Source of the DNA: a bacterium
Lineage (GTDB): Bacteria; Bacillota_I; Bacilli_A; RFN20; CAG-826
Direction: 5' to 3'
NCBI GenBank assembly: GCA_963622135.1
Contig: CAVFGR010000015.1
Span: 1,064-65,063 of the forward strand
Length of the DNA: 64,000 nucleotides
Part shown: piece after piece, positions 38,557-61,000 of the stretch
Position numbering within the stretch: the first letter of the stretch is position 1
Layout of the letters: each line of letters opens with the position of its first letter
Program-made: the position numbers and the translations under genes
Notes under the pieces: generated by a model
Told to the model about the DNA's origin: nothing
The model's input: only the letters and a program-made list of their open reading frames with translations
Databases searched by the model: none

Positions 38557-38790
38557 ATGCAGAAAAAACTAAACGAATTCGAAATAGGCGAGACTGGCCT
38601 AATTAAAAAAGTGGAAGGCGAAGGCCGTCTGCGTCGCAGGCTGTTTGATATGGGCGTCACCCCTGGCGCTACCGTCTCCATGAAGAAAAAAGCCCCTCTG
38701 GGTGACCCGATCGAGATCACTATCAGAGGTTACGAACTGTCTTTGAGAAAGGACGAAGCCAGTTTGGTCGTTATGGAGGTGGAAAAATGA
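38557..38790 (+). CDS. feoA: ferrous iron transport protein A (second copy)
   Basis: 77 aa FeoA. AGGAGGTAGGAG RBS. Confidence 0.8.
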   Translation: MQKKLNEFEIGETGLIKKVEGEGRLRRRLFDMGVTPGATVSMKKKAPLGDPIEITIRGYELSLRKDEASLVVMEVEK

Positions 38791-41114
38791 AACACGTAGC
38801 TTTAGCCGGCAACCCGAACTGTGGTAAAACCACCTTATTTAATGTTCTCACCGGATCTACGGCGCACGTTGGTAACTGGCCGGGTGTTACGGTGGATAAG
38901 AAAACCGGAACTTACAAAAAACTAGAAGAACCACTCGAAATCGTGGACCTTCCGGGCATTTATTCCCTCTCGCCATACACCCCAGAGGAAATTGTTTCTA
39001 GAAACTATATCCTCGACGAGAAACCGGATGTCGTTATCAATGTCGTTGATGCGACCAACATCGAGAGAAACCTCTATTTGACCACCCAGTTGATGGAAAT
39101 CGATGTCCCTGTTGTCATCGCCCTCAACATGTGCGACCTTCTTAAGAAAGATGGAAGCAAGATCAATCCTGAAGTCTTATCTGGCAAATTGGGAGTCCCA
39201 GTCGTTGAGATCTCCGCTTTAAGAGGCGAGGGTCTTGAAGAATTGATGAAAGCCGCTCTCGAAGCCGCCAAGACCAAGAGAGAAGGCAAGACCATGCTCG
39301 AGGATCAAAACCTCATGCATTTGGTCAGAGATGTCACCATCGCTTTCGAAGGAAAAGGCGTCGAGAATCCATTATTCCACGCTGTGAAGCTCGTCGAAGC
39401 CGATGAAATCGAAACCCAAAACCATGGCGATCTCATGCCGATGGTTACAAAGTTCAAAGAAACCTTCAGCGACGATACCTTCGGTGATGATTTCGAAGCT
39501 TTAATTGCCGATGCTCGTTATAAGTTCATCGCCAAAGAATTCGGCAAAGTCGTCGTCAAGAAAGAAGCCGAACCAGAGCCGGAAGTCATCGAGGATAATA
39601 CTGACGGCAAAAAGAAAAAGAAGAAAAAAGCCAAGGTCGGCACCAAATCCGACCGCATCGATAAGGTTTTGACCCACAGAATCTGGGGTCTCCCAATCTT
39701 TATCGTCATCATGTTCTTCTTGTTCCATTTCACCTTCTCTGAAGACTTACTCTTCATGGGCAAGATGGGACTTACCATCGAAAACGAAGCCGCCATCAAC
39801 TTCTTCACCGGCATGGGTTATGAAGGTGAAGCGATGGAAGGCATTCCTTCCTTAGGTGTCTGGCTGCAAAGCTGGATGGGATACATAACCGGGCAGATCA
39901 CCGCTGGATTCCAGTGGTTATGCAATGGTTGCAAGGACTTCGGCGAAGTCGCCGCGGCCAATGCCAGCGCCACTTGGTATGGATCTCTCATCTGCGACGG
40001 TATCTTAAATGGCTTGGATGCGGTTTGCTCCTTCATCCCGCAGATCATGCTCTTATTCTTCTTCATCGCGATTATGGAAGACACTGGCTACATGGCCCGT
40101 ATTGCCTTCATCTTGGATAGAGCCTTCAGAAAGTTCGGTCTTTCGGGCAAGGCCTTCATCCCAATGCTTACTGGCTTTGGCTGCTCGGTTCCGGGCATCA
40201 TGGCCACCCGTACGATCGAAAACGACGTCGAAAAGAACAGAACCATCCGCTTGATGACCTGCTTCTCTTGCGGCGCGAAAGCTCCTATTTGGGCTTTATT
40301 GGCCGGCGTTGCCAACGCCTGCGGATACGGCTATGGCGATGTCTTCGTCTTCACCATTTATATCGGCGGTATCGCGTTAGCGATTATCCTTGCCATCTTC
40401 ATGCGTGTCTTCTCCAAAGAAAAGTACGTTTCCCCATTCATCATGGAATTGCCGCAATACCATTTGCCGCAAGCGAGAAACGTTGCCGCTCACCTTTGGG
40501 AGAAACTGAAACACTACGTCATCAAAGCCGCGACTATCTTAACTGCTTCCTTGATCGTCATTTGGTTCCTTAAGACCTTTGGCGTCGAAGGCGGCAAGTT
40601 CTGCATGGTCGAGGATATCGATCATTCCTTGATTGGCTACATCGGCATGGGCTTGAAGTACATCTTCTATCCATGTGGCTGGGCTATCAATGCGGATGGT
40701 TGGAAATACGCTGCCGCTTCTGTCACTGGCTTAGTTGCCAAGGAAGACGTCGTCGGCACTATGGCGGTCTTGTTCAACGGTGGAAACGAGGATTCCCTCG
40801 CCGAAGCCTTGACCAGTTTATCCGCTTCAGGCGTTTATTCCTTCGCTATCTTCAACTTATTGACCTTCCCTTGCATGGCGGCCATCTCTACCGCCAGAGC
40901 TGAGCAGACCAGAAAGGAATTCTGGAAGACCTTGCTCTTCTGGTTCAGCGTTTCTTACATCGCTTCCGCCTTGGTTTATTGGGTTGGAACCTTGTATGAG
41001 ATTGCCTGGTGGGGTGGATTGCTCGTCACCTTGGCTCTCATCGGTGGCGTTGTCACCGCGGCCATCTTGGTCGTCAGAGGCAATAAGAAAGCCGCTCAAA
41101 AGACCGTTGCTTAA
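38787..41114 (+). CDS. feoB: ferrous iron transport protein B
   Basis: G-domain GNPNCGKTTLFN, the gate motif and a C-terminal polytopic permease. Contains a K7 insert. Confidence 0.92.
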   Translation: MKHVALAGNPNCGKTTLFNVLTGSTAHVGNWPGVTVDKKTGTYKKLEEPLEIVDLPGIYSLSPYTPEEIVSRNYILDEKPDVVINVVDATNIERNLYLTTQLMEIDVPVVIALNMCDLLKKDGSKINPEVLSGKLGVPVVEISALRGEGLEELMKAALEAAKTKREGKTMLEDQNLMHLVRDVTIAFEGKGVENPLFHAVKLVEADEIETQNHGDLMPMVTKFKETFSDDTFGDDFEALIADARYKFIAKEFGKVVVKKEAEPEPEVIEDNTDGKKKKKKKAKVGTKSDRIDKVLTHRIWGLPIFIVIMFFLFHFTFSEDLLFMGKMGLTIENEAAINFFTGMGYEGEAMEGIPSLGVWLQSWMGYITGQITAGFQWLCNGCKDFGEVAAANASATWYGSLICDGILNGLDAVCSFIPQIMLLFFFIAIMEDTGYMARIAFILDRAFRKFGLSGKAFIPMLTGFGCSVPGIMATRTIENDVEKNRTIRLMTCFSCGAKAPIWALLAGVANACGYGYGDVFVFTIYIGGIALAIILAIFMRVFSKEKYVSPFIMELPQYHLPQARNVAAHLWEKLKHYVIKAATILTASLIVIWFLKTFGVEGGKFCMVEDIDHSLIGYIGMGLKYIFYPCGWAINADGWKYAAASVTGLVAKEDVVGTMAVLFNGGNEDSLAEALTSLSASGVYSFAIFNLLTFPCMAAISTARAEQTRKEFWKTLLFWFSVSYIASALVYWVGTLYEIAWWGGLLVTLALIGGVVTAAILVVRGNKKAAQKTVA

Positions 41115-41116
41115 TA

Positions 41117-41521
41117 ATGGAATGGTATGAATATCTGATTATCGTCGTCGCCGTCTTCTTGGTGGTGGGGCCGATAGTTAGTTACTTCGTTAAAAAGAAA
41201 AAAGGCACTTTGAAATGCGAGTGCGGTCACCTTCAAAGTGAATGCACTGGTAACTGTGCCTCTTGTTCCCTGACTAAAAAAGATAGCAAAGGCAAAAAAG
41301 GCACTTTGACTTATGTTGTTTCCGTCCAAGGGATGAAATGTGGTATGTGCGAAAGCCATATCAACGACATCATCCGCAAGGAATTCGACGTGGTCAAAGT
41401 CAAATCATCGCGAAAGAGCCAAACCACGACAATCGTCACCAAGAGAATCTTAAACCCCTCCAAAATAAGATCAGCAATTGGTTCTCTTGGCTACAACGTT
41501 CTCTCGGTGAGGCTTAAATAG
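41117..41521 (+). CDS. FeoB-associated Cys-rich membrane peptide fused to a heavy-metal-associated (HMA) domain
   Basis: N-terminal TM followed by CECGH..C..C.SC, then GMKCGMCESHI...AIGSLGYNV (GMxCxxC HMA fold). Confidence 0.7.
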   Translation: MEWYEYLIIVVAVFLVVGPIVSYFVKKKKGTLKCECGHLQSECTGNCASCSLTKKDSKGKKGTLTYVVSVQGMKCGMCESHINDIIRKEFDVVKVKSSRKSQTTTIVTKRILNPSKIRSAIGSLGYNVLSVRLK

Positions 41522-41529
41522 GTAAGATT

Positions 41530-41560
41530 AGAGGAGATAGCCACTCCTCTTTTCTTTTTC
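41530..41560 (+). terminator. terminator after the feo operon
   Basis: AGAGGAG-atagccact-CTCCTCT hairpin followed by TTTTCTTTTTC. Confidence 0.65.
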
Positions 41561-41700
41561 TTTGTGCCGATGGAATCACACACTTAATGAAATCAATAAG
41601 CCGGCTTTCAAATGTAAAAAACGATATGGTTGCTCTTTGTTATATTTATTGTGATACAATAATTCATTCCGTATGCCTTTTTAGGCAACAAGGAGAATTT

Positions 41701-44121
41701 ATGAGAAAAATTAGTAAATTAACAATTCTGACATTAGGGGCGATCGCTTCTGCGTGTTTGGCCTCTTGCGGGCCTGATGCCAGCGATTCCTCTGATCATA
41801 GCAGCGTTCAGCAAACGCTTACCAGCATCAAAATCGTCTCCGGCTCCATCAAGACCAGCTTCAGCCAAGGCGCAACCCCGAATTATAACAATCTCGCCAT
41901 CAACCTTCTCGACCAAGACGAGAAGAAGATGGATACCTTAAAATGGGTTGATAACAAGGACAAGATCACTTTCACGGAAATCGATACTTCCGAGTTGGCG
42001 ACGGATAAGGTCTTCACCGTTACCTATAACGATGGTCAAAACGAATTCACCGACACTTTGAAATACAATGTCGTTGAGGCCTACACTCTTTCTTCCTGGG
42101 CCGCCAATCCGAATTATTCCTATACGACCGGATATCAGGCCAACAACAAGATCTCTACCGACGAAGATAACTTGGAGAAGGGATTCATGAAGACCGCCAC
42201 CTTCTATGTTGGCAACATGAACTCCGTCAATTTGCTTCCAGAATTAAATGGTTTGAACAAAGAGACCTATGAGGTTACTGAACTTACCACCATTCCAACC
42301 GGCGCGACTGTTAAATTGGTTTCCGAAGGCAAGGATATGGTCGTTGACTCTTATATTGAAAACGCCGATTCCTTCATCAAAGATGGCCAATTGAAATTCA
42401 AAGATGGTGTCACCGGCTCTTTCGCTATCACCCTCAGCTATTCAGGCTTGCAGGATATCGTTTATAACGTCGAAGTCGTCGATGCTTATAACGTCAGCAA
42501 AGCGACCGATTTGTACGCTTTCTACACTAACAACACCAACGATTCTTCTATCTTCACTCCAGTCCATGAATTCAAGAAAGAATTAGGATTGCCTGATGCC
42601 GATAACATTGTTATCCAAAACGACATCACCATCGGCAAGAACGACATCCCTTCCGCCTTCATCTGGCAAGAAAATTGCGACGAAGTCGTCAAAGGAAGCT
42701 TGAAAGACTGGATCCGTCTTTATGAGCATCAATTCGATGACGCCAATGAAACCGCCACTGTCTATGGCAACCTCCATAAGATTTCCTTCAACACCGATGA
42801 AGACGACGAGAATATGTTCCCGTATGTCATAACCGACTCACAGGAAGGTATCGCCCAAAGCGAATCCAAGCCAATCTCTTGTCACGCTTCTTTGTTCTAT
42901 GGCACTTATGGCGCCAATCAAGATCCGTTCAATTGCCAGATTATCTTCAAAGATCTTCAGGCTTCCGGCAATAATGGCGTCGATGATACCGCCACGACAG
43001 CCAAAAAAGTTGGTCCGATGTTCTTGAAGTCCGAAGTTAACTCCAAATTTGACAACGTTTTGGTTAACAGTTTCTATATGGCTGCCATGGCTGACGGTCC
43101 TTATTCTTGGTATGAGAACGGCGTTAAGAAGTATGGCAAGCAAATCGATGGTGTCTTCATTGATCCAAAAATCGAAATTGATTCCTGTCGTTTCAATGAC
43201 TCCGCCAACGCTGCCCTCTATTTCTTCGGTCAGTCCAAAGGCGATATCAAGAACTCCGATATCACCAAAGCCGGTGGACCATTGATCTTCACCAACCCAC
43301 AAATTGAGCCGTTGCCAGATGATGTCATCTCCGCGTTAAGCTACGCCCCGACATTCTCCACTGAAGTCAATATCGATGAAAACAGCTTCCTTTCCAACTA
43401 TACCGCTGGCAAAGGCGGATGGTTCGATGCTTATAGTGCCAGCGCTATTGCCGGAACCTTACAATCCATGGATGGACTTTTCACCCCTTATGGCATGTCC
43501 TTCTTAAGAACGAAGAACGATGTTAAGAAATTCAATCTTATCTTAGTTAATCTTCCTATTTCTGGAGAAGAAGCCCTTGCGTTGCCATCTTTGGATGAAG
43601 GCTGCACCAATGTCACCATTAAGAAAGGCAACAACGTTGTTTACAGCACCCTTGATGGTTATCAAGAAGTTATGACTGCTTATGCCGCTCTCGCGGCCGC
43701 CACTCAATCTGCTGCTTCGGCTGAGGAATTAGCCACCCTCTATCAAGCTTATGCCGATGCTATCTCCAGCAGTTTCTATGGCAATAACTTAGCCTACGCT
43801 AACATTCAGAACGAAATGGTCTTTGCGGCCACTAACGGCGAAGGCAAACATGAATTTGGCATCGTCAATGTTGATCAAAGCAGTGGACAATACTATCTCT
43901 GCTCCAGCGACTACGCCATCAAAGCCGGAATGGCTGCCGCTAGCATCCCTGTCACCGTTCCAAGCAGCTATCAGCCAGGCGAAACTATGAAGAGCGCTGG
44001 ATTCTTATCCGCCACCATCAACGGAAACATCGTTTATGGCTCTTCCCAGCTTACTACCCCGACCGCCTATAACGGCGCCAACAACTACGGCGTCATCTTA
44101 GGCGACTATCACGCTATCTAA
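41701..44121 (+). CDS. large surface lipoprotein (807 aa), function unknown
   Basis: Signal peptide with lipobox LASC (MRKISKLTILTLGAIASACLASCG). AAGGAGAA RBS. Asn/Asp/Gly-rich repeats. The longest ORF (41587) was trimmed. Confidence 0.7.
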   Translation: MRKISKLTILTLGAIASACLASCGPDASDSSDHSSVQQTLTSIKIVSGSIKTSFSQGATPNYNNLAINLLDQDEKKMDTLKWVDNKDKITFTEIDTSELATDKVFTVTYNDGQNEFTDTLKYNVVEAYTLSSWAANPNYSYTTGYQANNKISTDEDNLEKGFMKTATFYVGNMNSVNLLPELNGLNKETYEVTELTTIPTGATVKLVSEGKDMVVDSYIENADSFIKDGQLKFKDGVTGSFAITLSYSGLQDIVYNVEVVDAYNVSKATDLYAFYTNNTNDSSIFTPVHEFKKELGLPDADNIVIQNDITIGKNDIPSAFIWQENCDEVVKGSLKDWIRLYEHQFDDANETATVYGNLHKISFNTDEDDENMFPYVITDSQEGIAQSESKPISCHASLFYGTYGANQDPFNCQIIFKDLQASGNNGVDDTATTAKKVGPMFLKSEVNSKFDNVLVNSFYMAAMADGPYSWYENGVKKYGKQIDGVFIDPKIEIDSCRFNDSANAALYFFGQSKGDIKNSDITKAGGPLIFTNPQIEPLPDDVISALSYAPTFSTEVNIDENSFLSNYTAGKGGWFDAYSASAIAGTLQSMDGLFTPYGMSFLRTKNDVKKFNLILVNLPISGEEALALPSLDEGCTNVTIKKGNNVVYSTLDGYQEVMTAYAALAAATQSAASAEELATLYQAYADAISSSFYGNNLAYANIQNEMVFAATNGEGKHEFGIVNVDQSSGQYYLCSSDYAIKAGMAAASIPVTVPSSYQPGETMKSAGFLSATINGNIVYGSSQLTTPTAYNGANNYGVILGDYHAI

Positions 44122-44127
44122 TAATTT

Positions 44128-46590
44128 ATGACAAATAAGGCCCTGAAAAAGAACATTTGCCTCTTTGCGGGCCTTTTTGTCGTTTTAGGGCTATCGTTCG
44201 GCTTATCTTTCATCAATAAGAGCAACTACGCTCTTAATTTCTTGCCGTTTGTCTTGCTCTTATTGGTCTTAATCGGCGGCTTCATCTTATTGAAACGCTA
44301 CCTTAAAGACCATAAAGCGAAGTCTTTTAAATCCAAATGGCTCACCAAGATGAGTGCTAGATTAGCCACCAAAGAAGGCCGTTATAAGTACCTGCTTTGT
44401 CTCCTTTCCATCATTCTTGGAATCTTGTTTTTCGCCCGTTTCTATTTCTTCAAAGGCACTTACGATTATGTAGATGCTTACGGTGGGGCGGGCTCTTTCA
44501 CTTACTACGACATTTTCCATCTCGAAAGTCAGCTATTGATGCTTCGTTTGGATCCATTGATGCTAGCTAAATACGAGTCGGTTATCGGCACGTTGGCTAA
44601 TGATTTATGGACGGCGTTGGTCGTATTGAGCTTGGTCAGCGCTTTCTATTTGGAAGAATCTTCCTTAAGCGTCCGTCGTTATATCGGCGTTCCTGGCGCC
44701 ATCTTGATCACCCTAGCCTTCCCAATCGTCCTTAAGGGCATCGTTGGGTCCGATGCGGTTTCTTATCGTTCCATCCTTATGGGCTTGGAATTGGCTATCA
44801 TTGATTTCTATTTCTTCCATAGCCTTTTTGAAGAAGGAAAGTTCAAGCTCAATAAGAAAGAGATAAGGAAAATCATCGCCATTTTGATTCCGATGTTATT
44901 GACGATGGCGACCGCTTATTCCCCATCCTTATTATTCGGAAGGACGGTTAATTTGGGCGGTTACACCTTAACCAATCCAAAAGGACCGAAGAATTTATCC
45001 CATCGTATCTATCTATATTTGGCTTTCATCTTGCCAATTTTGTACTTTGCCTTGCTATATCCTATGAGCAAAGAAGAAAGAAGAGGCGCTTTGCTGCAGA
45101 TATCATTAGGTACTTTGATTGGCTATGCCTCTATTCATCGTTATGACATCTGGACGGATTTGTCCTCTTGGCCATTACATCTTTGCAACACCGCCATGTA
45201 CACGATGCCGATAACTTTGTTATTTGCTAGTTACGGTCTTTATTACTTCACCTTCTTCGTTAACGTGTTAGGTGCTTTCTTAGCGTTATTGATGCCTAAT
45301 TTCTCGGAAACCCTATATGTTTTCGATCCGAAAATCGTGGCTTTCTTCATCAACCATTTGAACGCCTTCTTCATGCCGGTGCTAATCGTCATGTGCGGAG
45401 TATATAAGCGACCGAAGATGCGTTACTTCTTATATTCCCAGATAGGGTTCTTTGTGTATTTCGCTTTCGTTATGGCGGTCAACACTATCCTTACCGCCCA
45501 TGGCGTCTCTAGCGACTTCTTCTTCATCAATTCCTCATTCGTCGCCGATAAGTTGGGCGAATGGGCCAAAAACCTATTTAAGACAACGATTTCTTGGGAA
45601 AGCAAAGGATATACCTATGTCTTGCATTTGGCTTACGACATATCCTATTACCTTGTCTATGTCGTCTTAGCCTTCGGCATGTGGTTCTTATACGAATTGT
45701 TATTCCGAGTGACCGACGAATTGGCTGCCATTCGCTTAGCCAAAGAAAAATCAATCAGCCGTCATAAGGCTTACTTAGCCATTCACCAAGGAGGAAAAAT
45801 CATGAGCGAGAAAATTGAATTAACCATCTCTCATCTTTCCAAACGCTATCACGGGAACGATTTCTTTACCGTCAAAGATTTCTCTCTGGACTTAGAGGGC
45901 GGAAAGATCTACGGATTCCTTGGCAAGAATGGCGCAGGCAAATCTACCATCATCAAATCCATCGTTGGTATCCATGGCTTTGAGGGTGGCGAGATTGACG
46001 TCTGCGGGCATAATGTCATCGAAGAGCCATTGGAAGCTAAAAAAGAAATCGGCTTCGTTCCTGATAACTATGCCTTATATGAGAACTTGACCGGCAGACA
46101 GTACATCAGCTATATTGCTGACCTTTATCATGTTTCCAAAGAGCAAAAAGAAGAAACTGAAGAGAATCTCGTTGCCCGTTTGGAATTGGTGGACCGTTAC
46201 GACAAGCCGATGAAATCTTATAGCCACGGCATGAAGCAAAAAATCACCATCATCGCCGCTCTTATTCATAAGCCGAAAATCTGGATTTTGGATGAGCCTA
46301 TGACTGGTTTAGATCCAAATTCCATCTATCAGATCAAAGAATGCATGAGAGAACACGCTAAAGAAGGCAACATCGTCTTCTTCTCCTCCCATATCATCGA
46401 TGTCGTTAAGAACCTTTGCGACGAAGTTGTCATCATTAAGAAAGGTGACCTCATCAGGCGCATTGATTTAGACGCTGAGCCAGAAGAAAGGGAGAACCTC
46501 GAAGAGACCTTCCTTCGTTTAACCAGCGACAGTGAGGAAGAATCAAACATTTTGATTGAAGAAGAAAAGAAGGAGAAAGGAATCGCGTGA
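44128..46590 (+). CDS. polytopic membrane protein (about 14 TM, YwaF/TMEM164-like C-terminal part with PLHLCN) fused in frame to an ABC-transporter ATP-binding domain
   Basis: Continuous 820-aa ORF. The ATPase domain starts at residue 559 (Walker A GKNGAGKST, signature YSHGMKQK, Walker B ILDEP). Internal AAGGAGG plus ATG at 45788-45804. Confidence 0.7.
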   Translation: MTNKALKKNICLFAGLFVVLGLSFGLSFINKSNYALNFLPFVLLLLVLIGGFILLKRYLKDHKAKSFKSKWLTKMSARLATKEGRYKYLLCLLSIILGILFFARFYFFKGTYDYVDAYGGAGSFTYYDIFHLESQLLMLRLDPLMLAKYESVIGTLANDLWTALVVLSLVSAFYLEESSLSVRRYIGVPGAILITLAFPIVLKGIVGSDAVSYRSILMGLELAIIDFYFFHSLFEEGKFKLNKKEIRKIIAILIPMLLTMATAYSPSLLFGRTVNLGGYTLTNPKGPKNLSHRIYLYLAFILPILYFALLYPMSKEERRGALLQISLGTLIGYASIHRYDIWTDLSSWPLHLCNTAMYTMPITLLFASYGLYYFTFFVNVLGAFLALLMPNFSETLYVFDPKIVAFFINHLNAFFMPVLIVMCGVYKRPKMRYFLYSQIGFFVYFAFVMAVNTILTAHGVSSDFFFINSSFVADKLGEWAKNLFKTTISWESKGYTYVLHLAYDISYYLVYVVLAFGMWFLYELLFRVTDELAAIRLAKEKSISRHKAYLAIHQGGKIMSEKIELTISHLSKRYHGNDFFTVKDFSLDLEGGKIYGFLGKNGAGKSTIIKSIVGIHGFEGGEIDVCGHNVIEEPLEAKKEIGFVPDNYALYENLTGRQYISYIADLYHVSKEQKEETEENLVARLELVDRYDKPMKSYSHGMKQKITIIAALIHKPKIWILDEPMTGLDPNSIYQIKECMREHAKEGNIVFFSSHIIDVVKNLCDEVVIIKKGDLIRRIDLDAEPEERENLEETFLRLTSDSEEESNILIEEEKKEKGIA

Positions 46591-48326
46591 AAAAGGTAGC
46601 GAACGAAAAAACATCTGCTTTCCGACGCTTTTTCGCGGTTGATTGGCGTGCCTTTTGGGTGTTGGTGAAAATGCTTTTCTCCAACTCCATGTCCATCAAC
46701 TGGAAGAAAGATAAAAAGAAAGCCATCATCAAGATCGTTTTGAGCTTGGTCGCTTTCGCAGCGGTTGCTGCCTTATCTTACGTTTTCTTCTATTTCTGTA
46801 TTCGCTTTAGCATTTTCTCCTTGCTAGCCTTCGTTCCGATGAGCGTTCCATCTATCGTGGTGACCGTCTTATTGATCATCTCGTTTATTGCTTCCTTATC
46901 AAAAGTTACGGAAGAACTTTATTTCGGAGAAGATAACAAGGTTTTGCTCACTTTGCCAACGAACGGGAATACCTTGTTCTTGTCCCGATTGGCGGTACGC
47001 TACATCACCTCATATCGCCGTTCCTTGTTATTAGAAATCCCATTCTTGATTGGTTATTTTGCTGTTAGCAGATATCCGGTTTATATGTATTTCGTCTTGT
47101 TTGTTATCTGGGCGTTGATCGACTTAGTGATGTTATTGCTGGCTTCCCTCATAAGCGTCCCTGTTTATTACATCAAAAAGGCAATCCGCACCCACACTTG
47201 GGCTAGCATCATCGCTAAATCCATCATCTTTGCCATCATCTTGGCTTTATGTATCACCGTCATTGTCCTTGTACCTGATAATATCGATATTTTCTCGAAC
47301 TGGGGCACATACTTTGCCAAGATTCAGAACGGTCTAAATTACTACAAAAACAACCTTGGGTTCTTCTATCAAATTTCCATGGTCTATTTGGGCAATTTCA
47401 CTGGATTCAGTTTCTATTTCATGTCTCGTTCGGCTATTGCTGGTCTATGGACTTTATTGGCCATAATTGGCCTTATCGTCGTTCTATTCGTGGCATCGTT
47501 AGCTTTGGCTAGCCCGCTATATTTGAAGTTAGCCAGCGGCACTGGAGAACTTCAGGCCAAGGGCAGGAAGAATGCCAAAGAAAAAGAAAACAAGTCTTTG
47601 CCTCCGTTCATTTCTCAAATCAAGAAAGATGCCATTCTGTTCTTCAAGAATTCAGATATTTCTTCTTCCTATCTCGGAACCTTTACAGCTTTGCCTTTGT
47701 TGATCGCTTTGTTGGCCAAAATCTTCAACGCGATGGACTTAAATAGCCGTGGGGACGCTTTGGTGCAGGTCGTGAGCTTACTAATTGCTCTGCTTATCGG
47801 CTTAAGCACCAATTCGGTAATTGCCCGCATCTATTCCGAGGAAGCTGGAGCCTTCAAATTGGCGAGAACCTATCCACTTAAAGAGCATTACGCCGTCGGA
47901 AGTAAGCTCTTTATTCCTGGCGTATTTGGCTGTTTGAGTCTTGTGGCGTGCACTATCTCTTTATGTTACATCCGTCCGGAGATGCTCGAAGGAACTACCT
48001 TCATGGGCGTTGCTATGATCTTCGTTTATGTCGGACATTTGCTATACAGCGCCGGACTCGACTTCACCAATCCAAGTTCTACGTTCGGCGGTGGTTCTTT
48101 CTTAGCTAGAAACGAAAATCGCTCGGTTATCATGGCTTTTATCACTTCGGCCTTCTTTGCGGCTTTGTACTACTATTATTTCCAAGACCACATATTGTGG
48201 CTCTCGTCCTTGCAAGCGACCGCCGGATTCAAGGTATTCATCTTAGGTGTCATCTATCTAGCTTTTAACATCATTCTCTATATTCGCAAAATCAAATACA
48301 TTTACAAAACGGGGGAGGTCTTATGA
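46587..48326 (+). CDS. ABC-2-type exporter permease-like polytopic membrane protein
   Basis: 579 aa with about 12 TM. GTG start overlapping the upstream stop (GTGA). AAGGAGAAAGG RBS. Confidence 0.65.
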   Translation: MKKVANEKTSAFRRFFAVDWRAFWVLVKMLFSNSMSINWKKDKKKAIIKIVLSLVAFAAVAALSYVFFYFCIRFSIFSLLAFVPMSVPSIVVTVLLIISFIASLSKVTEELYFGEDNKVLLTLPTNGNTLFLSRLAVRYITSYRRSLLLEIPFLIGYFAVSRYPVYMYFVLFVIWALIDLVMLLLASLISVPVYYIKKAIRTHTWASIIAKSIIFAIILALCITVIVLVPDNIDIFSNWGTYFAKIQNGLNYYKNNLGFFYQISMVYLGNFTGFSFYFMSRSAIAGLWTLLAIIGLIVVLFVASLALASPLYLKLASGTGELQAKGRKNAKEKENKSLPPFISQIKKDAILFFKNSDISSSYLGTFTALPLLIALLAKIFNAMDLNSRGDALVQVVSLLIALLIGLSTNSVIARIYSEEAGAFKLARTYPLKEHYAVGSKLFIPGVFGCLSLVACTISLCYIRPEMLEGTTFMGVAMIFVYVGHLLYSAGLDFTNPSSTFGGGSFLARNENRSVIMAFITSAFFAALYYYYFQDHILWLSSLQATAGFKVFILGVIYLAFNIILYIRKIKYIYKTGEVL

Positions 48327-48838
48327 AAAAAGGTGTTGCCGTCTTAGTTAGCGCGATATGCCTTTTGGCCGTGGTTTTCGTTACGGTCTTCGGCACTCGC
48401 CCACAAGGTATCGTCCCTGTCATTTACATTACCAATCTCACCATCAAGCCAAGTGACAACAGCCGCTACTGGACCACTGATAGCGGTGTGCATCAATGCG
48501 TTATCGAATATGATCCAAATAAGGAAGTCACCGATGGCGAAGATTGCTATATGCCTTATATTTTTGTCACTGACATTCTTCCTGAAAACGCAACGAACAG
48601 AAGCTTTGTTTATACCCTCGCTAAGGAATATGAAAACTACATCACCTTCTCTTCTGGCGACCAAGCTGCTAGACAAGGCGCTTTCCTTATCAAAAAGATC
48701 ACTGACCGTGCAGATCCAATGGTCGTTTCCATCTCCGTTTCCCCGCAAGATGGCGGCAGTGGCAAAGGCGACACTTTAAAGATCGTCATTGTCTACGACA
48801 AGGTCTATGGAAGTTCTTCGACTCCAAGTGGCGATTAG
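48323..48838 (+). CDS. small signal-anchored exported protein
   Basis: N-terminal TM/signal MKKGVAVLVSAICLLAVVFV. GGGGGAGG RBS. ATGA overlap with the upstream gene. Confidence 0.55.
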   Translation: MKKGVAVLVSAICLLAVVFVTVFGTRPQGIVPVIYITNLTIKPSDNSRYWTTDSGVHQCVIEYDPNKEVTDGEDCYMPYIFVTDILPENATNRSFVYTLAKEYENYITFSSGDQAARQGAFLIKKITDRADPMVVSISVSPQDGGSGKGDTLKIVIVYDKVYGSSSTPSGD

Positions 48839-48914
48839 CCCGTTCTTTTATTCAATAATCTAGAATGCTAAAATCTTGACGGATATTTTACTTTGCAAAA
48901 TATCACTATAAACG

Positions 48915-51734
48915 ATGCAATATTTCTACCTAACATTAGTAGCTCTTTCTCCGGTTGTTCTCAGCATCGTTTTCTTTTTGCTTGATAAATACACGAAATT
49001 CAAGAATCTCAAATACATAGTCAAACAAATTATCTACGGCATCGCTTTCGGCGGACTAGCCATAGTTGGCACTGAATGTGGCATTCCTATCTCGGGGGCT
49101 CAAATCAATTGCCGTGACGCTGCCGTATTAACTGCTGGGCTTATGTTTGGTGGGCCAGCCGGCATGATTGCTGGTGTTATCGGTGGCGTTGAACGTTTTG
49201 TTAGCGTTTATTGGGGCGTTTCCTCTTTCACCCAAATCGCTTGCAGCGTCTCTACTATTTTGGCTGGCGCTTACGCTTGGTTAATTCGCAAATTCATGCT
49301 TGAAAACAATCGCCCGGGAATCTTCTTTGGCTTTTGCGCTGCGGTGGTTATGGAAATCTTCCATTTGGCCATGATTTTCTTCACCAACTTCAGCGCTCAA
49401 GCGGAAGCTATGGCGGTGGTTAGGGCCGCAACCCTCCCAATGGTTTTAAGCAATGGATTGTCTGTGGCGGTTTCAACCTTAGTCATGACCTTGCTTAACA
49501 AGGAGAAACTTTTTGCTAAACTTAGAGACACGAAAACATCGAAAATCGTTCAGCAATGGCTTCTTTTGACGGTTGTTATTGGTTTCTTAGCTTCCGGTGT
49601 TTTCGTTTATAGCTTCCAAACCTCATTAGCCAAGAGCGAGGCTAAAGAATCATTGAATTTGGCTATTTCGGATACCGAGGCGGACATCAAAGATAAGTCT
49701 GATGCGAACATCTTATCTATTTGTCATGATGTGGCCTCTGATTTAACAGCGGGTGATGACATCGATCTTATCGCTGATAGACGTGACGTAACTGATATTC
49801 ATGTCGTTAATAGCAAAGGCATCATTATCAAGAGCACTGATCTATCCTTAATTGGTTGGGATATGCATAATTCCGACCAATCGGAAGAATTCCTATGCCT
49901 TTTGGATGGAAAGACCACGTCTTATGTTCAGGCTTATGGACCGATTGGCTCAAATGAAGAAATCTATCGTAAGTTTGCAGGCGTTACCTATGATGATGGC
50001 TTCGTTCAAGTTGGATATGATGGCGAGCGTCTTCAAAGAGATATTGCCGAGCAAGTCAACAACGTAACCAAGAACCGCCATATCGGCAAAGGAGGATGCG
50101 TCCTCGTCCTCGACCAAAATAAGCAAATAGTTTCTGGCCCAGATTCATTTATGAAGGGCGGGCCGCTGGAAAGTGGCAACAGTTCCTTCCCAATTTCCGA
50201 TACTTTCAAAGTTACCGTAAAGGGAACGGAATACTATTGTGTCTATGCCATGTCGGAAGGCTATTACATCGTTTCCTTGTTGCCAATCGAAGAAGCTTTG
50301 GCTGATCGCAACGTTTCGTTATACCTAAGCACCTTCATGGAAGTAATTGTTTTCGCAATTATATTTGCTTTGGTTTACGGCTTAATCGAAAAGACGGTCG
50401 TCAAGCAACTTAAGCATGTCAATAAGACCTTGTACGCCATTTCCAATGGAGACCTTTCATTGGCGGTAGATGTTAGAGGTTCATTGGAAATGTCCTATCT
50501 TTCCAACGACATCAATAGAACCGTTGATTCGATGAAGAAGTTGATTTCCGAAGCCAACCAAAGAATCGACGATGAGTTGGAATTCGCTAAGCAGATTCAA
50601 TCGTCTTCCTTACCGGTTATCACTGAAAAAGTGAGTAAGCGGCAAGAATTCGATATATACGCCTCTATGAAAACCGCCAAAGAAGTCGGTGGGGATTTCT
50701 ATGATTTCTACGGAAATGAAAAGAACTTCAACATTATGATTGCCGATGTCTCGGGCAAAGGCATTCCAGCCGCGATGTTTATGATGCGTGCCAAAGCCGA
50801 CCTTAGGACCTTGACGGAAGCTGACAAGCCTTTAGATGAGGTTTTTACCTCTGCTAACTCCTCTTTGTGCGATCGTAATGATGCCGGAATGTTCGTCACG
50901 GCGTGGCAAGGGAACATCGATTTAGAAACCGGTCTTCTTACCTTCGTCAATGGTGGACATAACCCTCCATTAATCAAAAAAGCCTCAACTGGAAAATTTG
51001 AATACCTTAAGTCTAAAGCCGGCTTTATCTTAGGCGGGATGGAGGGATTCAAATATCGTTCCAATACCCTTCAATTGGAACCTGGGGATGTTCTTTTCCT
51101 TTATACCGACGGTATCACCGAAGCCGTTGATAACGATCTTAAATTGTATGGCGAACAACGTCTGCTTGATTTGCTCAATAAGACCGAGGCTAAGAATATG
51201 AAAGAACTCTGCCTAGAAGTCTCGAAAGATATCGAAGTTTTCTCCAACGGTGCCCAGCAGGCTGACGATATCACTATGCTGGCCTTCGAATATAAAGGGA
51301 TTGTGCCAATTCCAAGCATTCATTTCGATGAAGCTAAGTTAACGGATATTGAGCAAATGACCGAATTCCTTAATGCCGAACTAAACAAATGCCAATGCCT
51401 TAAGAAAGAACGTTATCAGCTCGATGTCGCCCTTGATGAAGTGGTCTCTAACATCATCAATCATGGATATGACGGGAAGCCGGGGCCACTTACGATGTCT
51501 GTCGAATATCGTGAAGACAGGAATGCCATCTATCTCAAATTTATCGATAAGGGCATTCCGTACAACCCGCTTCATAATTCCGATCCAAACCTCGATGTTT
51601 CCTTGGAAGAGAGGAAAGTCGGCGGAGTTGGCATCTATATCGTCAAGAACACGATGGACGATATGAAGTACAAATATGAAGATGGGCAAAATATTTTGAC
51701 TTTGACAAAGCTTCTTAATAAGGAAGGGGAATAA
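48915..51734 (+). CDS. membrane sensor protein: 7-TM + periplasmic sensor + HAMP + PP2C (SpoIIE/RsbU-type) phosphatase + GHKL anti-sigma-type Ser kinase (RsbW-like) domain
   Basis: PP2C motifs GGDFYDF, DVSGKG, TDGITEA, ADDIT. HATPase_c_2 motifs VVSNIINHGY...GGVGIYIV. Confidence 0.85.
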   Translation: MQYFYLTLVALSPVVLSIVFFLLDKYTKFKNLKYIVKQIIYGIAFGGLAIVGTECGIPISGAQINCRDAAVLTAGLMFGGPAGMIAGVIGGVERFVSVYWGVSSFTQIACSVSTILAGAYAWLIRKFMLENNRPGIFFGFCAAVVMEIFHLAMIFFTNFSAQAEAMAVVRAATLPMVLSNGLSVAVSTLVMTLLNKEKLFAKLRDTKTSKIVQQWLLLTVVIGFLASGVFVYSFQTSLAKSEAKESLNLAISDTEADIKDKSDANILSICHDVASDLTAGDDIDLIADRRDVTDIHVVNSKGIIIKSTDLSLIGWDMHNSDQSEEFLCLLDGKTTSYVQAYGPIGSNEEIYRKFAGVTYDDGFVQVGYDGERLQRDIAEQVNNVTKNRHIGKGGCVLVLDQNKQIVSGPDSFMKGGPLESGNSSFPISDTFKVTVKGTEYYCVYAMSEGYYIVSLLPIEEALADRNVSLYLSTFMEVIVFAIIFALVYGLIEKTVVKQLKHVNKTLYAISNGDLSLAVDVRGSLEMSYLSNDINRTVDSMKKLISEANQRIDDELEFAKQIQSSSLPVITEKVSKRQEFDIYASMKTAKEVGGDFYDFYGNEKNFNIMIADVSGKGIPAAMFMMRAKADLRTLTEADKPLDEVFTSANSSLCDRNDAGMFVTAWQGNIDLETGLLTFVNGGHNPPLIKKASTGKFEYLKSKAGFILGGMEGFKYRSNTLQLEPGDVLFLYTDGITEAVDNDLKLYGEQRLLDLLNKTEAKNMKELCLEVSKDIEVFSNGAQQADDITMLAFEYKGIVPIPSIHFDEAKLTDIEQMTEFLNAELNKCQCLKKERYQLDVALDEVVSNIINHGYDGKPGPLTMSVEYREDRNAIYLKFIDKGIPYNPLHNSDPNLDVSLEERKVGGVGIYIVKNTMDDMKYKYEDGQNILTLTKLLNKEGE

Positions 51735-51736
51735 GC

Positions 51737-52918
51737 ATGGACAACATTAGTTACAAATTGGAAAATGGGACTTTAACGGTTTTCGTTTCAGGGAGAATCG
51801 ATTCTTCGAACGCTCAAGAGTTTGATAGCGAATTAGAATTAATCCGCACGAATAATGCACACAATGCATTGGTGCTAGACGCCGAGAATCTTGAATATAC
51901 CTCCAGCGCCGGTTTACGCGCTATCCTACGCGTTTTGAAACTCGAACCGGGTATGAAAATCATCAATGCCTCCAGCGAAGTTTATGACATTTTCGAGATG
52001 ACTGGTTTCACCGAATTGATGACTATTCAAAAGGCTTACCGTCACATTTCGGTGGAAGGAGCTGAACTTATCGGACAAGGTGCGACGGGCAAAGTCTATA
52101 GAACCGCACCTGACACCATCGTTAAAGTCTATTTCGATTCAAATTCCCTTTCTGATATCGAAAGAGAAATCAAAATGGCTAGAAGGGCCTTCGTTTTAGG
52201 CATTCCGACCGCGATTCCGTTTGATATCGTCAAGGTTGGCGATAATTTTGGTTCGGTTTTCGAGATGCTTAACGCCGATTCCTTCGCGAAGTGCGTCATC
52301 AATGATCCCAATAATATTGATAAATATATCGATTTAAGCGTCGATCTTATGAAGAAAATCCATCACGCCGAAGTGAAGCCTGAAGAGATGGCGGACCAAA
52401 AGGCCGTTTTCCGTAAGAGAGTCGACTTTGCTAAAAATTACCTAAGCAAAGAAAGATACGAGAAATTGTCGAAGATGTATGAAGCCATCCCGGAAAGCAA
52501 TCACATGCTTCACGGCGATCTCCATTTCAAAAACATGATGATGCAAAATGGCGAAGTCCTCTTGATCGATATGGACACCCTTTGCCATGGAGACCCAATC
52601 TTTGAATTTGCCAGCATCTATGATGCCTACCTTGGCTTTTCGGAATTTGATCACGAGAACATTCATGATTTCTTAGGCATTACCTATGAGCAGGGCCAAC
52701 ACGTCTGGCAAAAGACGGTTGAGGACTATTTCGAGACTAAAGATGAAAACCGCATCAAAGAAATAACCGAGAAAGTACAAGTTTTAAGCCATCTTCGCCT
52801 CTTCCATCACATCATTACCCATGGGTTGGATACCGATGAAGAACATAAAAAGCAAAGAGACGGCTATCTCCATCTTCTCGAAAAAGCCATCGATGACGTT
52901 GATAACCTAATTCTCTAG
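51737..52918 (+). CDS. STAS (anti-sigma antagonist) domain fused to an APH/protein-kinase-like phosphotransferase domain
   Basis: STAS loop LEYTSSAGLRAIL. Kinase motifs IGQGATGKVYR, VKVY, HGDLHFKNMMM, LIDMD. Confidence 0.8.
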   Translation: MDNISYKLENGTLTVFVSGRIDSSNAQEFDSELELIRTNNAHNALVLDAENLEYTSSAGLRAILRVLKLEPGMKIINASSEVYDIFEMTGFTELMTIQKAYRHISVEGAELIGQGATGKVYRTAPDTIVKVYFDSNSLSDIEREIKMARRAFVLGIPTAIPFDIVKVGDNFGSVFEMLNADSFAKCVINDPNNIDKYIDLSVDLMKKIHHAEVKPEEMADQKAVFRKRVDFAKNYLSKERYEKLSKMYEAIPESNHMLHGDLHFKNMMMQNGEVLLIDMDTLCHGDPIFEFASIYDAYLGFSEFDHENIHDFLGITYEQGQHVWQKTVEDYFETKDENRIKEITEKVQVLSHLRLFHHIITHGLDTDEEHKKQRDGYLHLLEKAIDDVDNLIL

Positions 52919-52927
52919 GAGTTGAAG

Positions 52928-53227
52928 ATGGAAATAACTAAAAATTTAGATAGTGGGAAAGTCATTCTTTCCCTCAAAGGAAGGCTCGATACGGTCACTT
53001 CGCCAGAACTTGATAGAGTCATGAAAGAGACCTTTGAAGAAACCAATGATCTCGTTCTCGATTTAAAGGGACTGGACTATGTTTCATCTTCGGGCTTGCG
53101 TTTGTTTTTGATTGGTTATAAAACCATGTCCGGGAAAGGCGGACGCTTCTCCCTTATAAATGTCAATGAAGTCGTTATGGATGTCCTTGAAATGACGGGC
53201 TTCAACGATCTTCTATCCAACAATTAA
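52928..53227 (+). CDS. stand-alone STAS-domain anti-sigma-factor antagonist (SpoIIAA/RsbV-like)
   Basis: Phosphorylatable loop DYVSSSGLRLFL. TAGGAG RBS. The ORF track starts at an upstream TTG at 52922. Confidence 0.8.
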   Translation: MEITKNLDSGKVILSLKGRLDTVTSPELDRVMKETFEETNDLVLDLKGLDYVSSSGLRLFLIGYKTMSGKGGRFSLINVNEVVMDVLEMTGFNDLLSNN

Positions 53228-53243
53228 AATCTGGAGGTACAAC

Positions 53244-53885
53244 ATGTTGAAATTATTGGCCAGCTCTTCCGATTCAGGAAAAAATGTCGATGTCGGTTTA
53301 ATCGTCGCGATTGTCTTAGGCATCGCTCTTATTGTCACGTTGGTTGTCTTTATTATCTACACCATCAATCTTAAAAAAGGTGTCTCTTTCTTATACACCA
53401 TCGTCGGCAGCGAAGCCGATACGACCATCGATTCGGCCATCGAAAAGAACGAAACGGCCAAAAAAGACATGAAGAAAGGCGTCGTCACCGACTATAACAA
53501 GCAAAGAAAAGAAATCGCTAAGGAATACGATAAAAAGATCAAAGAGATTAACGCTGGCTACGCCAAACAAGTTAAAGAGACCAGAAAGCAGGCCAACGCC
53601 GCCATCAAGGTAGCGAAGGAAGACGAAGATGCCGAAGGACTTACCCAAATCCGCGAGAAATTAGACATCGACGTCCGCAATATCAACGCTTCCAAACGCG
53701 CTGAAGTTGATCCGGTGGTTACCGAAAAGAACGCTAAGTTAAAGGAAATCGAAGACCAATATAAGCCATCGCTTATCACCTATCAGAGGGTTTTGGCGGT
53801 TTCTAGACACACAAAACCTGTCGCAAAAATTTTAAAGAAATGCAAAGAAAAAGAATACGCTTTGCCAGACTACGATAAGCAATAA
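53244..53885 (+). CDS. membrane-anchored coiled-coil protein
   Basis: One TM (LIVAIVLGIALIVTLVVFIIY) followed by a K/E-rich helical region. GGAGGT RBS. Confidence 0.55.
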   Translation: MLKLLASSSDSGKNVDVGLIVAIVLGIALIVTLVVFIIYTINLKKGVSFLYTIVGSEADTTIDSAIEKNETAKKDMKKGVVTDYNKQRKEIAKEYDKKIKEINAGYAKQVKETRKQANAAIKVAKEDEDAEGLTQIREKLDIDVRNINASKRAEVDPVVTEKNAKLKEIEDQYKPSLITYQRVLAVSRHTKPVAKILKKCKEKEYALPDYDKQ

Positions 53886-53895
53886 AAGATTAGGC

Positions 53896-53935
53896 GGTTG
53901 CGGAGCTTAAGCCTTGGCAATCGCTTTTTTTATTT
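53896..53935 (+). terminator. terminator closing the 41.7-53.9 kb cluster
   Basis: GCGGTTGC...GCAATCGC stem followed by TTTTTTT. Confidence 0.55.
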
Positions 53936-54111
53936 TATGGGTGGGAAACTTTTTTATTCGTTGACACTTTTTAAGGCCATCAAAAAAATGTATCCGCTTT
54001 CATTTATGAGGGTTAAAATTATTTTACAATCGAAATAAGCTATTCGGCTTTCTAGGGAGGATTTTTGCCACATAGTTTATTTCCAAAAACTTGCAAATAG
54101 AAAGGAAACAC

Positions 54112-60102: not shown

Positions 60103-61000
60103 GTTCGCCCTCCTTGAATTTACGATTGAAATAGTTTTGTAAGGTATCGTGGTTCTCCACGATGGAAACAATTGGATAATTCGATAGAACCTTCAAAAAT
60201 TCTGATGCGTTTTCTCTCTGAATTTTGAATTCCAACTTCGTTTTAGATGATGTTCTTTGAACTTTGAATGGCGATTTTTTCAAGATATCTTCCGCATCAT
60301 TCTCAGAGCTCATTTCGACATAGAAAGTTTGAATATCTGGGTCGGATATCTTGGATATCTCTACCAAATCGATGATCTTCCCCTTATCAATCAAGGCAAC
60401 CCTGTCGCAAGTGGCTTCGACCTCTTCATAAAGGTGGGTGGACATAAAGATGGTTTTGCCTTTCTTATGTTCTTCCTCGATGATGGAGAGGAATTCATCT
60501 CTCATCAAAGGGTCCAAGCCGGTGGTAGGCTCATCGAGGATGATGATTTCCGGATCATTCATCAAGGCTGCCACCAAAGCGGTTTTTTGTTTCATGCCTT
60601 TCGACATACGCTTGAGGGAGGCGTTCGGATCTAAAGCCAGCTTTTGAATGAGATAGTTGGCCTTGGAAAAGTCTTTCAAGCCGTACAATTCGGCCTGCAA
60701 TTTTAAGAAAGTTATGCCGTTCTTTAAATCAGGGAAGGCTATTTCCCCTGGGACGTAGCCGATTAACTTCGCAATCTCGGATTCGTGCTCATGACATTCC
60801 AAACCATTGATGGTGATGGAACCGGAAGTCGGCTTTAAAAAACCCATTATGTGACGGATGGTCGTTGTTTTGCCCGCTCCATTTGAACCGACAAAGCCGA
60901 TCATCTCGCCTTTTTTGATTTCGAAGTTCATATCGAAAATGCCGCGACCTAAGCCGTAGTCTTTGGTTAAATTTGTGGCTTTGATAACTACGTCGCTCAT
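60089..61000 (-). CDS. ABC transporter ATP-binding protein
   Basis: GSNGAGKTTT, LSKGMKQK, ILDEPTTGLD. Confidence 0.85.
   Translation of the reverse strand: MSDVVIKATNLTKDYGLGRGIFDMNFEIKKGEMIGFVGSNGAGKTTTIRHIMGFLKPTSGSITINGLECHEHESEIAKLIGYVPGEIAFPDLKNGITFLKLQAELYGLKDFSKANYLIQKLALDPNASLKRMSKGMKQKTALVAALMNDPEIIILDEPTTGLDPLMRDEFLSIIEEEHKKGKTIFMSTHLYEEVEATCDRVALIDKGKIIDLVEISKISDPDIQTFYVEMSSENDAEDILKKSPFKVQRTSSKTKLEFKIQRENASEFLKVLSNYPIVSIVENHDTLQNYFNRKFKEGEHESK

Follow-up and report, generated by a model that had tools for sequence, protein, structure and literature searches.

A four-gene cassette of gut Bacilli and Clostridia encodes a YwaF/TMEM164-type membrane domain fused to an ABC ATPase

We analyzed a stretch of 64,000 nucleotides (hereafter the window) from a bacterium of the Bacilli_A lineage RFN20 (CAG-826; assembly GCA_963622135.1, contig CAVFGR010000015.1, positions 1,064 to 65,063 of the forward strand), with a focus on four consecutive genes, g1 to g4, at positions 41,701 to 48,838. 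These encode a large surface lipoprotein (g1), a protein in which a membrane domain of the YwaF/TMEM164 family is fused to an ATP-binding cassette (ABC) ATPase (g2), a permease (g3), and a small membrane-anchored protein (g4). They form one translationally coupled envelope ABC/surface-protein cassette, as a preliminary description of the window had proposed. Its four parts occur in synteny in 35 complete loci and six distant ones, and it is independent of the signaling genes that adjoin it in the window. The chances appear to us about even that the encoded proteins make up an ABC-2-type machine by which a membrane lipid, or a surface molecule with a lipid anchor, is remodeled and moved at the outer leaflet.

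An ABC ATPase fused to a TMEM164-related domain

The g2 protein comprises a seven-transmembrane extension (residues 1-290), a TMEM164/YwaF domain of seven transmembrane helices (291-530), and an ABC-2/DrrA-like ATPase (565-800). It belongs to family PF14808 by the Pfam threshold: residues 291-476 scored 58.5 bits against a gathering cut-off of 25 (E 9.1e-16), covering model positions 5-192 of 217. Residues 583-725 matched PF00005 (ABC_tran) with an E-value of 1.6e-25. Of the 120 homologues listed for the membrane domain of g2, 118 combine both families in the same fusion. Human TMEM164 is a dimeric transacylase that depends on phospholipid and requires C123, H181, and the intervening G155; cryo-electron microscopy shows it with an acyl-Cys123 thioester. 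YwaF is the uncharacterized prokaryotic branch of the same 'ATGY' superfamily (AIG1-TMEM164-GPC1-YwaF-YpjA).

Among 28 aligned fusion proteins with identities as low as 39%, residues H292, R293, P349, H351, C353, G382, N409, and H410 of the YwaF domain are invariant. The cysteine, glycine, and histidine of the human enzyme thus have invariant candidates in g2, with the Cys and the His on separate helices and similar spacing (29 and 28 residues for C353-G382-H410 versus 32 and 26 for C123-G155-H181). The hydropathy of the g2 family, together with its Lys plus Arg profile, pointed to 14 transmembrane helices with both termini inside and all Lys/Arg-rich loops in the cytoplasm. This predicted topology sets C353 and H410 at 5-8 residues from the outer helix ends, and a conserved polar cluster (H292/R293, H351/C353/N354, and N409/H410) would accordingly be situated in helices 8, 10, and 12, close to their outer ends. 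On the other hand, human and bacterial members of the family are stand-alone proteins with about seven transmembrane helices, whereas the domain of g2 is placed between the seven-helix extension and the ATPase.

The nucleotide-binding domain (NBD) of g2 retains an intact set of motifs, namely Walker A (GKNGAGKST, 599-607), the signature (YSHGMKQK, 698-705), Walker B with the catalytic Glu (WILDEP, 719-724), and the H-loop (FFSSH, 751-755). All of its NCBIfam scores were below the cut-offs: 191.7 versus 312.45 for drrA (E 1.7e-56), 182.6 versus 402.6 for GldA, 151.2 versus 309.75 for the lantibiotic-protection model galliderm_ABC (E 3.4e-44), and 121 versus 521 for NodI. The cassette therefore falls outside every curated transporter equivalog that was scored. 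Two further features of the NBD are conserved in all 28 aligned fusion proteins: the atypical signature itself and Asp646 within a VPD motif (residues 642-647, window 46051-46068). This segment presumably lies at the position of the Q-loop, and both features may resemble those of EcsA-type ATPases.

The N-terminal extension of g2 (window 44128-44997) is an extra module of seven transmembrane helices with an invariant intramembrane Glu (E221, in LMGxELG) and a near-invariant Arg (R104), and it is shorter in the Clostridia-type homologues. It did not resemble the YwaF half or a known family to any detectable degree; an internal duplication of g2 was considered and discarded (hhalign probability of 0.3% between the N-terminal and YwaF halves).

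The permease and the two extracytoplasmic partners

The start of g3 is backed by a database protein of 579 aa with 100% identity. Its AlphaFold2 model (predicted local distance difference test, pLDDT, 79.6) consists entirely of helices, of which about 12 are transmembrane. When compared to the Protein Data Bank (PDB) with Foldseek, the model best resembled ABCG2, CcmB, and NosY, followed by ABCG5/8 and ABCG1/16/25, at probabilities of 0.95-1.0 and TMt of 0.49-0.54, each match covering about half of g3. We read the model as two fused transmembrane halves of the type-V (ABC-2) fold. An internal repeat of the two halves was searched for in the sequence and rejected as a weak, motif-level match (E 0.018). 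The window g3 matched no Pfam family at E <= 1, including 12TM_1 (PF09847) and ABC_tran_2 (PF16949), two families with no assigned function that are annotated on its homologues: the former on 15 of 53 homologue hits, the latter on two of 18 aligned family members and on the permeases of two distant loci (L049 and L050). Motifs ascribed to this kind of permease are also present in g3, namely an 'LxxLP'-type motif (LLTLP, residues 120-124) and a KKD motif opening the second half.

The N-terminus of g1 consists of a signal peptide (MRKISKLTILTLGAIASACLAS-C23) ending in the lipobox L20-A-S-C23, as expected of a bacterial lipoprotein (signal peptide with L-[AS]-[GA]-C). The LASC lipobox noted in the preliminary description was confirmed by an alignment of 25 homologues in which L20 and C23 are invariant. 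A longer version of g1 starting at the upstream ATG at 41587 was unsupported, as homologues are about 806 aa in length. The AlphaFold2 model of g1 (pLDDT 88, predicted template-modeling score 0.82) suggests that the lipobox is followed by a disordered Ser/Asp linker, two immunoglobulin (Ig)-like beta-sandwiches (about 40-265), a beta-solenoid core of stacked short strands (about 300-560, assigned with DSSP), and a lineage-specific alpha/beta C-terminal part (560-806). The protein had been described as rich in N, D, and G with beta-helix-like repeats; the enrichment is only mild (7.9, 7.3, and 6.9%), and the beta-helix-like character fits the model within the core region only.

Foldseek matches of g1 in the PDB were confined to the Ig-like part (the S-layer proteins Sap, SbsC, and SbsB, and LigA; E 3e-5). 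No PDB match to the core was obtained by Foldseek on the model, and the profile sequence search gave noise or nothing. Against BFVD, the core produced weak, long alignments to solenoids of phage tailspike, pectate-lyase-like, and leucine-rich-repeat types, with E-values from 6e-7 to 1e-2 and TM-scores of just 0.14-0.27. An exhaustive profile search placed 553 cluster representatives in the g1 family, 411 of them at E <= 1e-10, with profile positions of about 1-610 in common. Big_3 was annotated on 29 of 43 distant family members, none of which has an annotated domain over the core. Neither Foldseek and profile searches of the PDB nor the annotation of these 43 members assigned a catalytic family to g1.

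By hydropathy, g4 has a single N-terminal transmembrane helix, and its other residues, about 140, are extracytoplasmic. In an alignment with its counterparts from two distant loci (L003 and L047), it shares with them the motif PENATNRS..Y / G.F.I / DGG, and the small partner of one distant locus is annotated as Big_2. Three of 13 members of the g4 family matched Big_2 (PF02368; best E 3.8e-8), and the window g4 itself scored no match. Judged by its family, g4 is a membrane-anchored protein with a predicted Big_2-like extracytoplasmic Ig domain. A locus of the distant set (L050, 12001-13055) has tandem genes for small partners, one of 183 aa with a transmembrane helix and one of 150 aa with a lipoprotein-like N-terminus (LLLSSC); the two share their C-terminal domain, which points to a duplicated g4-type component. 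The initial statement that none of the four proteins has an obvious characterized homolog thus had to be revised, given the TMEM164/YwaF and DrrA-like domains of g2, the modeled type-V fold of g3, and the predicted Ig-like domains of g4 (Big_2-like) and g1.

Organization and conservation of the cassette

The four genes are open reading frames (ORFs) of the plus strand that are tightly packed between an upstream terminator and position 48838 (Table 1). The gaps at g1/g2, g2/g3, g3/g4, and g4/g5 are 6, -4, -4, and 76 nt, with the start of g3 overlapping the stop of g2 (GTGA) and the start of g4 overlapping that of g3 (ATGA) by 4 nt each. Apart from two small corrections (g1 is 806 aa instead of 807, and the last gap 76 nt instead of 77), the ORFs and junctions are as first described. 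No good -35 partner was found for the candidate promoter upstream of g1, where a consensus promoter scan made no call, and no riboswitch or known RNA was detected in the leader regions examined.

Table 1 Coordinates of the cassette and adjoining features (window positions unless a locus is named)
Feature	Position	Strand	Description
Upstream intrinsic terminator	41530..41560	+	Closes the feoB/HMA unit, left edge of the cassette; 7-bp stem and T-run (terminator scan)
Candidate cassette promoter	41652..41660	+	Extended -10-like TGaTACAAT, 40 nt 5' of the g1 start (direct sequence reading)
g1, surface lipoprotein	41701..44121	+	806 aa; Shine-Dalgarno AAGGAG
g2, membrane domain-ABC ATPase fusion	44128..46590	+	820 aa, membrane part of ~560 aa plus NBD
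g3, permease	46587..48326	+	579 aa; GTG start; Shine-Dalgarno AAGGAG
g4, bitopic protein	48323..48838	+	171 aa; Shine-Dalgarno GGAGG
Bipartite element 5' of g5	48866..48904	+	TGCTAAAATC-N19-GCAAAATATC; marks the right edge of the cassette
Bipartite element in other loci	L004 12280-12319; L005 2659-2697; L007 2240-2275; L035 12560-12598
g5-g8, partner-switching-type module	48915..53885	+	Neighbor, outside the cassette (Pfam, NCBIfam)
Terminator 3' of g8	53892..53932	+	Hairpin at ~53892-53926, dG -17.7 kcal/mol, z -2.85, then U7 (RNA fold)

A species-level scan of genomes with an alignment of nine permease sequences retrieved 43 loci. All genomes compared are metagenome-assembled genomes (MAGs), some of which bear unreliable organism names. 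Searches with the window proteins (tblastn) showed that 35 complete loci have the gene order g1-g2-g3-g4, at permease identities from 92% to 34%. Loci in which some part was missing were always cut by a contig end. Unsupervised clustering of the ORFs assigned the cassette genes to 46, 43, 43, and 38 sources and the next neighboring family to nine, so that only the four cassette genes recur across loci.

All four parts are also found in six distant, mostly Clostridia-type loci that were reached either from homologues of g2 (L003, L048, L049, and L050) or from remote relatives of g1 (L047 and L052). These encode a YwaF-ABC fusion, a 12TM_1/ABC_tran_2 permease, a bitopic protein of 130-185 aa, and a large Big_3 protein, and in the Clostridia-type loci the gene for the large surface protein is located downstream instead of upstream. 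A lipobox was present on all five distant large proteins whose N-termini were read (L003 and L047-L050). The carriers appear to be uncultured gut Bacilli ('uncultured Mollicutes', RFN20, Bacillales UBA, and Candidatus Enteromonas) and, for the distant set, Clostridia.

No copies of the cassette were found on plasmids. A mobile-element origin was discarded, as there was no plasmid match, the GC content of the cassette resembles that of the surrounding window, and PolC and TopA are encoded in the same window. Likewise, the identity of a defense system was rejected, since PADLOC returned generic ATPase similarity only. The clustering revealed no lantibiotic or regulator genes conserved near the cassette. 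Some neighboring genes are related to lipids or lipoproteins but not conserved: in L047 (9084-9572), a signal peptidase II gene (Peptidase_A8) follows the cassette at a distance of about 1.8 kb, and in L049 (4719-6287) a cardiolipin-synthase-like PLD gene and glycosyltransferases flank it. Nine 'cleanbin' MAGs (L008, L013, L014, L021, L024, L025, L026, L028, and L035) have Bacilli-type cassettes at 50-72% identity under names such as Escherichia coli, Bacteroides uniformis, Alistipes, Parasutterella, and Hallerella, which look wrong.

Resemblance to known systems

Known type-V systems either transport lipids and lipid-linked polymers or work for partner proteins outside the cytoplasm. The cassette resembles the type-V exporters (DrrAB, ABCG2 and ABCG5/G8, Wzm-Wzt/TarGH) in its DrrA/GldA-like NBD, in the putative ABCG-type fold of the g3 model, and in its coupled genes. 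It differs from them in that the two halves of g3 would be fused in a single chain of 12 transmembrane helices and in that its NBD is joined to an enzyme domain, not to a transmembrane domain. The NosDFYL and CcmABCD systems also combine an ABC-2-type core with extracytoplasmic partners, including a lipoprotein, and two of their components, NosY and CcmB, were ranked with the best fold matches of g3. Specifically, NosFY works with the periplasmic, membrane-attached carrier NosD and the lipoprotein NosL. NosD is a beta-helix protein; nevertheless, no match between g1 and NosD was seen in sequence or fold, there are no copper or heme genes, and the Nos and Ccm systems lack an acyltransferase domain.

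By analogy only, the cassette may also be compared to the Gram-negative systems LptB2FG-LptC and Lnt with LolCDE, in which an ABC motor pulls an acylated molecule from the outer leaflet and passes it to a beta-sandwich partner that is bitopic or soluble. Lnt uses an acyl-Cys thioester derived from a phospholipid, and LolCDE is a type VII ABC system. The likeness of g4 to LptC is limited to a single transmembrane helix and a beta-sandwich domain, and the Lpt and Lol systems differ from the cassette in their ABC fold types (VI and VII), are not homologous to it, and occur in other phyla.

A putative outer-leaflet lipid machine

The scheme that we infer for the cassette, from its stoichiometry and the sidedness of its active site to catalysis, substrate class, and hand-over, would be built around one g3 as the transport core, with both type-V halves in its 12 helices. 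Two copies of g2 would supply the two ATPase domains, dimerizing under the core, and each would tether a YwaF Cys-His enzyme and its seven-helix extension beside it, so that two YwaF domains flank the core. The extracytoplasmic partners would be g4 and the lipoprotein g1. A cycle could begin with the YwaF domain taking an acyl chain from a membrane glycerolipid at the outer leaflet as an acyl-Cys353 thioester. The chain would then be transferred to a lipid or a lipid-anchored molecule (a glycolipid or lipoglycan, or the anchor of a lipoprotein), or a chain would be removed from it. The ATP-driven ABC-2 core would flip or extract the product, or else couple or gate the enzyme cycle, and the product would be presented to g4 and g1 at the surface, following a logic similar to that of LptB2FG-LptC or NosFY-NosD.

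Several observations weigh against this scheme. The N-terminal domain of g2 scored 52.3 bits (E 4.5e-14) against TIGR02206, 'TMEM164-related integral membrane acyltransferase', and thus missed the cut-off of 75, as did the Clostridia-type homologues with 64.4 (L003) and 74.1 bits (L049). These scores indicate that the enzyme domain of g2 is a divergent relative of TMEM164 outside of that subfamily. The proposed equivalence of its Cys and His to those of TMEM164 draws on invariance and spacing: a direct alignment to the human protein was not reached, as searches of the PDB with a single sequence and with a nine-sequence profile hit nothing real. A counterpart of the TMEM164 metal ligand E106 is not evident in g2, and the outer-leaflet placement of the active site derives from hydropathy. 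The Foldseek E-values of g3 are weak (0.15-1) despite the high probabilities. As for g1, no solved or annotated protein proved significantly related to its core, and to cast it as the acceptor is a guess. Finally, catalysis and substrate are extrapolated from the human enzyme, and a full-text literature search found no study of bacterial YwaF proteins, of cassette members, or of an ATPase-lipid enzyme fusion.

Other explanations account for parts of the same evidence. The cassette could transmit mechanical force without transport, as in NosDFY or FtsEX, with ATP hydrolysis by g2 and g3 switching g1 (e.g., a glycan-binding or glycan-cleaving enzyme), g4 as an adaptor, and YwaF as an accessory. 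NosY and CcmB, which the modeled g3 resembles, belong to ABC cores that act on extracytoplasmic proteins rather than pump a solute; g1 and g4 are always co-encoded, and the solenoid of g1 is weakly similar to tailspike and pectate-lyase-type proteins. We nevertheless consider this unlikely, as it leaves unexplained why a Cys/His-conserved lipid-enzyme domain is fused to the ATPase in nearly all of the listed homologues, would have to dock the partners on short outside loops of g3 (56 aa or less), and invokes an activity of g1 for which no catalytic family was assigned. At the other extreme, the membrane domain of g2 might be a second transporter domain or an anchor devoid of catalysis within an ordinary heteromeric ABC exporter, which is how it was first described and which its large, polytopic nature would allow. 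This is extremely improbable, since the domain matches an enzyme family and no ABC transmembrane family, has invariant polar residues (H, C, N, and R) inside its helices, and would be redundant with g3, which alone provides two putative type-V halves.

It is rather unlikely that the cassette is a machine dedicated to lipoprotein anchors, a Firmicutes analogue of Lnt plus LolCDE in which YwaF would use phospholipid as the acyl donor to N-acylate or deacylate diacylglyceryl anchors, either that of g1 or those of lipoproteins at large, and the ABC core would extract or reposition the lipoprotein. On the one hand, the lipobox is kept in all of the distant large partners that were read, and its Cys in the g1 alignment, an acyl-Cys thioester mechanism with a phospholipid donor is known from TMEM164, and the catalytic cluster is predicted to be at the outer leaflet, where lipoprotein anchors reside. 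On the other hand, the proposal is purely analogical, and type-V ABC folds are not known as lipoprotein extractors. We would also give rather low credence to its more specific form, a machine of Firmicutes/Mollicutes type in which an ABC-2 motor fused to an outer-leaflet TMEM164-like transacylase would re-acylate its own lipoprotein anchor (or a lipoglycan) from phospholipid and then extract or position it. An exporter for resistance or immunity of the DrrAB or LanFEG-LanI type, expelling a drug, a bile compound, or a lantibiotic with g1 as a surface-binding immunity protein, is very improbable. The best NCBIfam matches of the NBD are indeed drrA and the lantibiotic-protection ATPase, and an ABC-2 core with a lipoprotein resembles the LanFEG/LanI layout; yet the scores are far under the cut-offs (192 versus 312 and 151 versus 310 bits), lantibiotic and regulator genes are not conserved nearby, plasmid copies are absent, and the partner is a multidomain protein of 800-1400 aa, unlike the small LanI. 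The fused YwaF domain would also be unexplained.

The adjacent signaling genes

Downstream of the cassette in the window are four genes (g5-g8) of a partner-switching type. The g5 protein (939 aa) combines 5TMR-LYT, Cache-like, SpoIIE PP2C phosphatase, and RsbW-like HATPase domains; g6 consists of a STAS antagonist and an APH/TIGR02172-type kinase-like domain, g7 of a STAS domain, and g8 of a transmembrane helix and a coiled coil. The partner-switching architecture of the region 48915-53227 is unusual, and no sigma factor gene is adjacent to it.

The preliminary description had inferred from this linkage that the module is co-transcribed with the cassette and senses or controls it. We evaluated this in 30 informative loci, i.e., non-redundant loci with at least 3.5 kb of sequence 3' of g4. 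The module adjoins the cassette in two of them (L004 and L035) and in short contigs of the close relatives L005 and L007; the distant L040 has a related g5/g6 pair 6.2 kb downstream, in which the g6-like gene has 51% identity. The remaining 27 have no module within 3.6-9.5 kb, and it is also not present in the six distant loci.

A bipartite element (TGnTAAAATC...GCAAAATATC) precedes the ATG of g5 by about 45 nt in every locus with an adjacent module. In its general form, TGnTAAAATC-N(16-19)-[GA][ACG]AAAATATC, it was found once per locus and at the same place in five genomes, although the g4-g5 spacers otherwise diverge and range from 76 to 365 nt, the longest being that of L035. The copy in L035 was called promoter-like by a scan, and TGnTAAAAT occurs once in the 64-kb window. 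The first half of the element is probably the extended -10 promoter of the signaling operon itself, as judged from its sequence, and the other half may serve this operon as a leader or operator site.

A terminator between 48840 and 48915, which would separate the two units, was looked for in the sequence and none was seen: the scan detected none in the g4-g5 spacer and RNA structure was insignificant (z 0.29). Read-through from g4 into g5 is therefore possible. Together with the adjacency in L004, L005, L007, and L035 and the pair in L040, this is what can be said for a single operon in which the module senses or controls the apparatus. That the two form one functional unit is quite improbable, considering that most informative loci and all distant ones lack the module, that only the cassette genes recur, that a conserved promoter-like element precedes g5, and that the spacer has lengthened in L035. 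A partnership is not supported by conservation, which instead presents the signaling genes as neighbors whose adjacency is local to the closest relatives.

The end of the module was placed correctly in the preliminary description: of the terminators claimed at 41530-41560 and 53896-53935, the former was found by the terminator scan, and the latter, a hairpin 3' of g8 that the scan missed, was recovered by RNA folding (z -2.85, with a U-run). Upstream of the cassette (38787-41521), the FeoB gene precedes one for a 134-aa protein that has a heavy-metal-associated (HMA) domain at its C-terminus, a pair conserved at this position only in the closest relatives (L004 and L035). Farther downstream, the window encodes a 696-aa ORF with a TTG start (54091-56181, plus strand), a marginal Peptidase_S9 match, and 95% conservation in L004, and a 638-aa ORF without a Pfam match (58255-60171, minus strand).

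Implications

The comparison of loci corrected a functional link to signaling genes that had been deduced from operon structure, and delimited the unit of interest to the YwaF-ABC fusion and its three partners. In the literature searched, we found no ABC transporter whose ATPase is joined to a membrane enzyme that modifies lipids. Here, this fusion and the three partners are a fixed module, whose surface-protein family extends over several hundred clusters in gut Bacilli and Clostridia. Its context, i.e., an ABC-2 core, a lipoprotein, and an Ig-domain partner, yields a testable hypothesis on the function of bacterial YwaF, in the remodeling of surface lipids or lipid anchors. If this is true, it would be relevant to the way in which wall-poor and Gram-positive gut bacteria assemble or modify the lipids and lipoproteins of their surface, molecules that are major immune ligands for the host. 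Should re-acylation of an anchor prove to be the activity, the cassette would be a functional counterpart of Lnt and LolCDE in bacteria that lack both, and would provide the first function assigned to the bacterial branch of the AIG1/TMEM164/GPC1/YwaF/YpjA superfamily.

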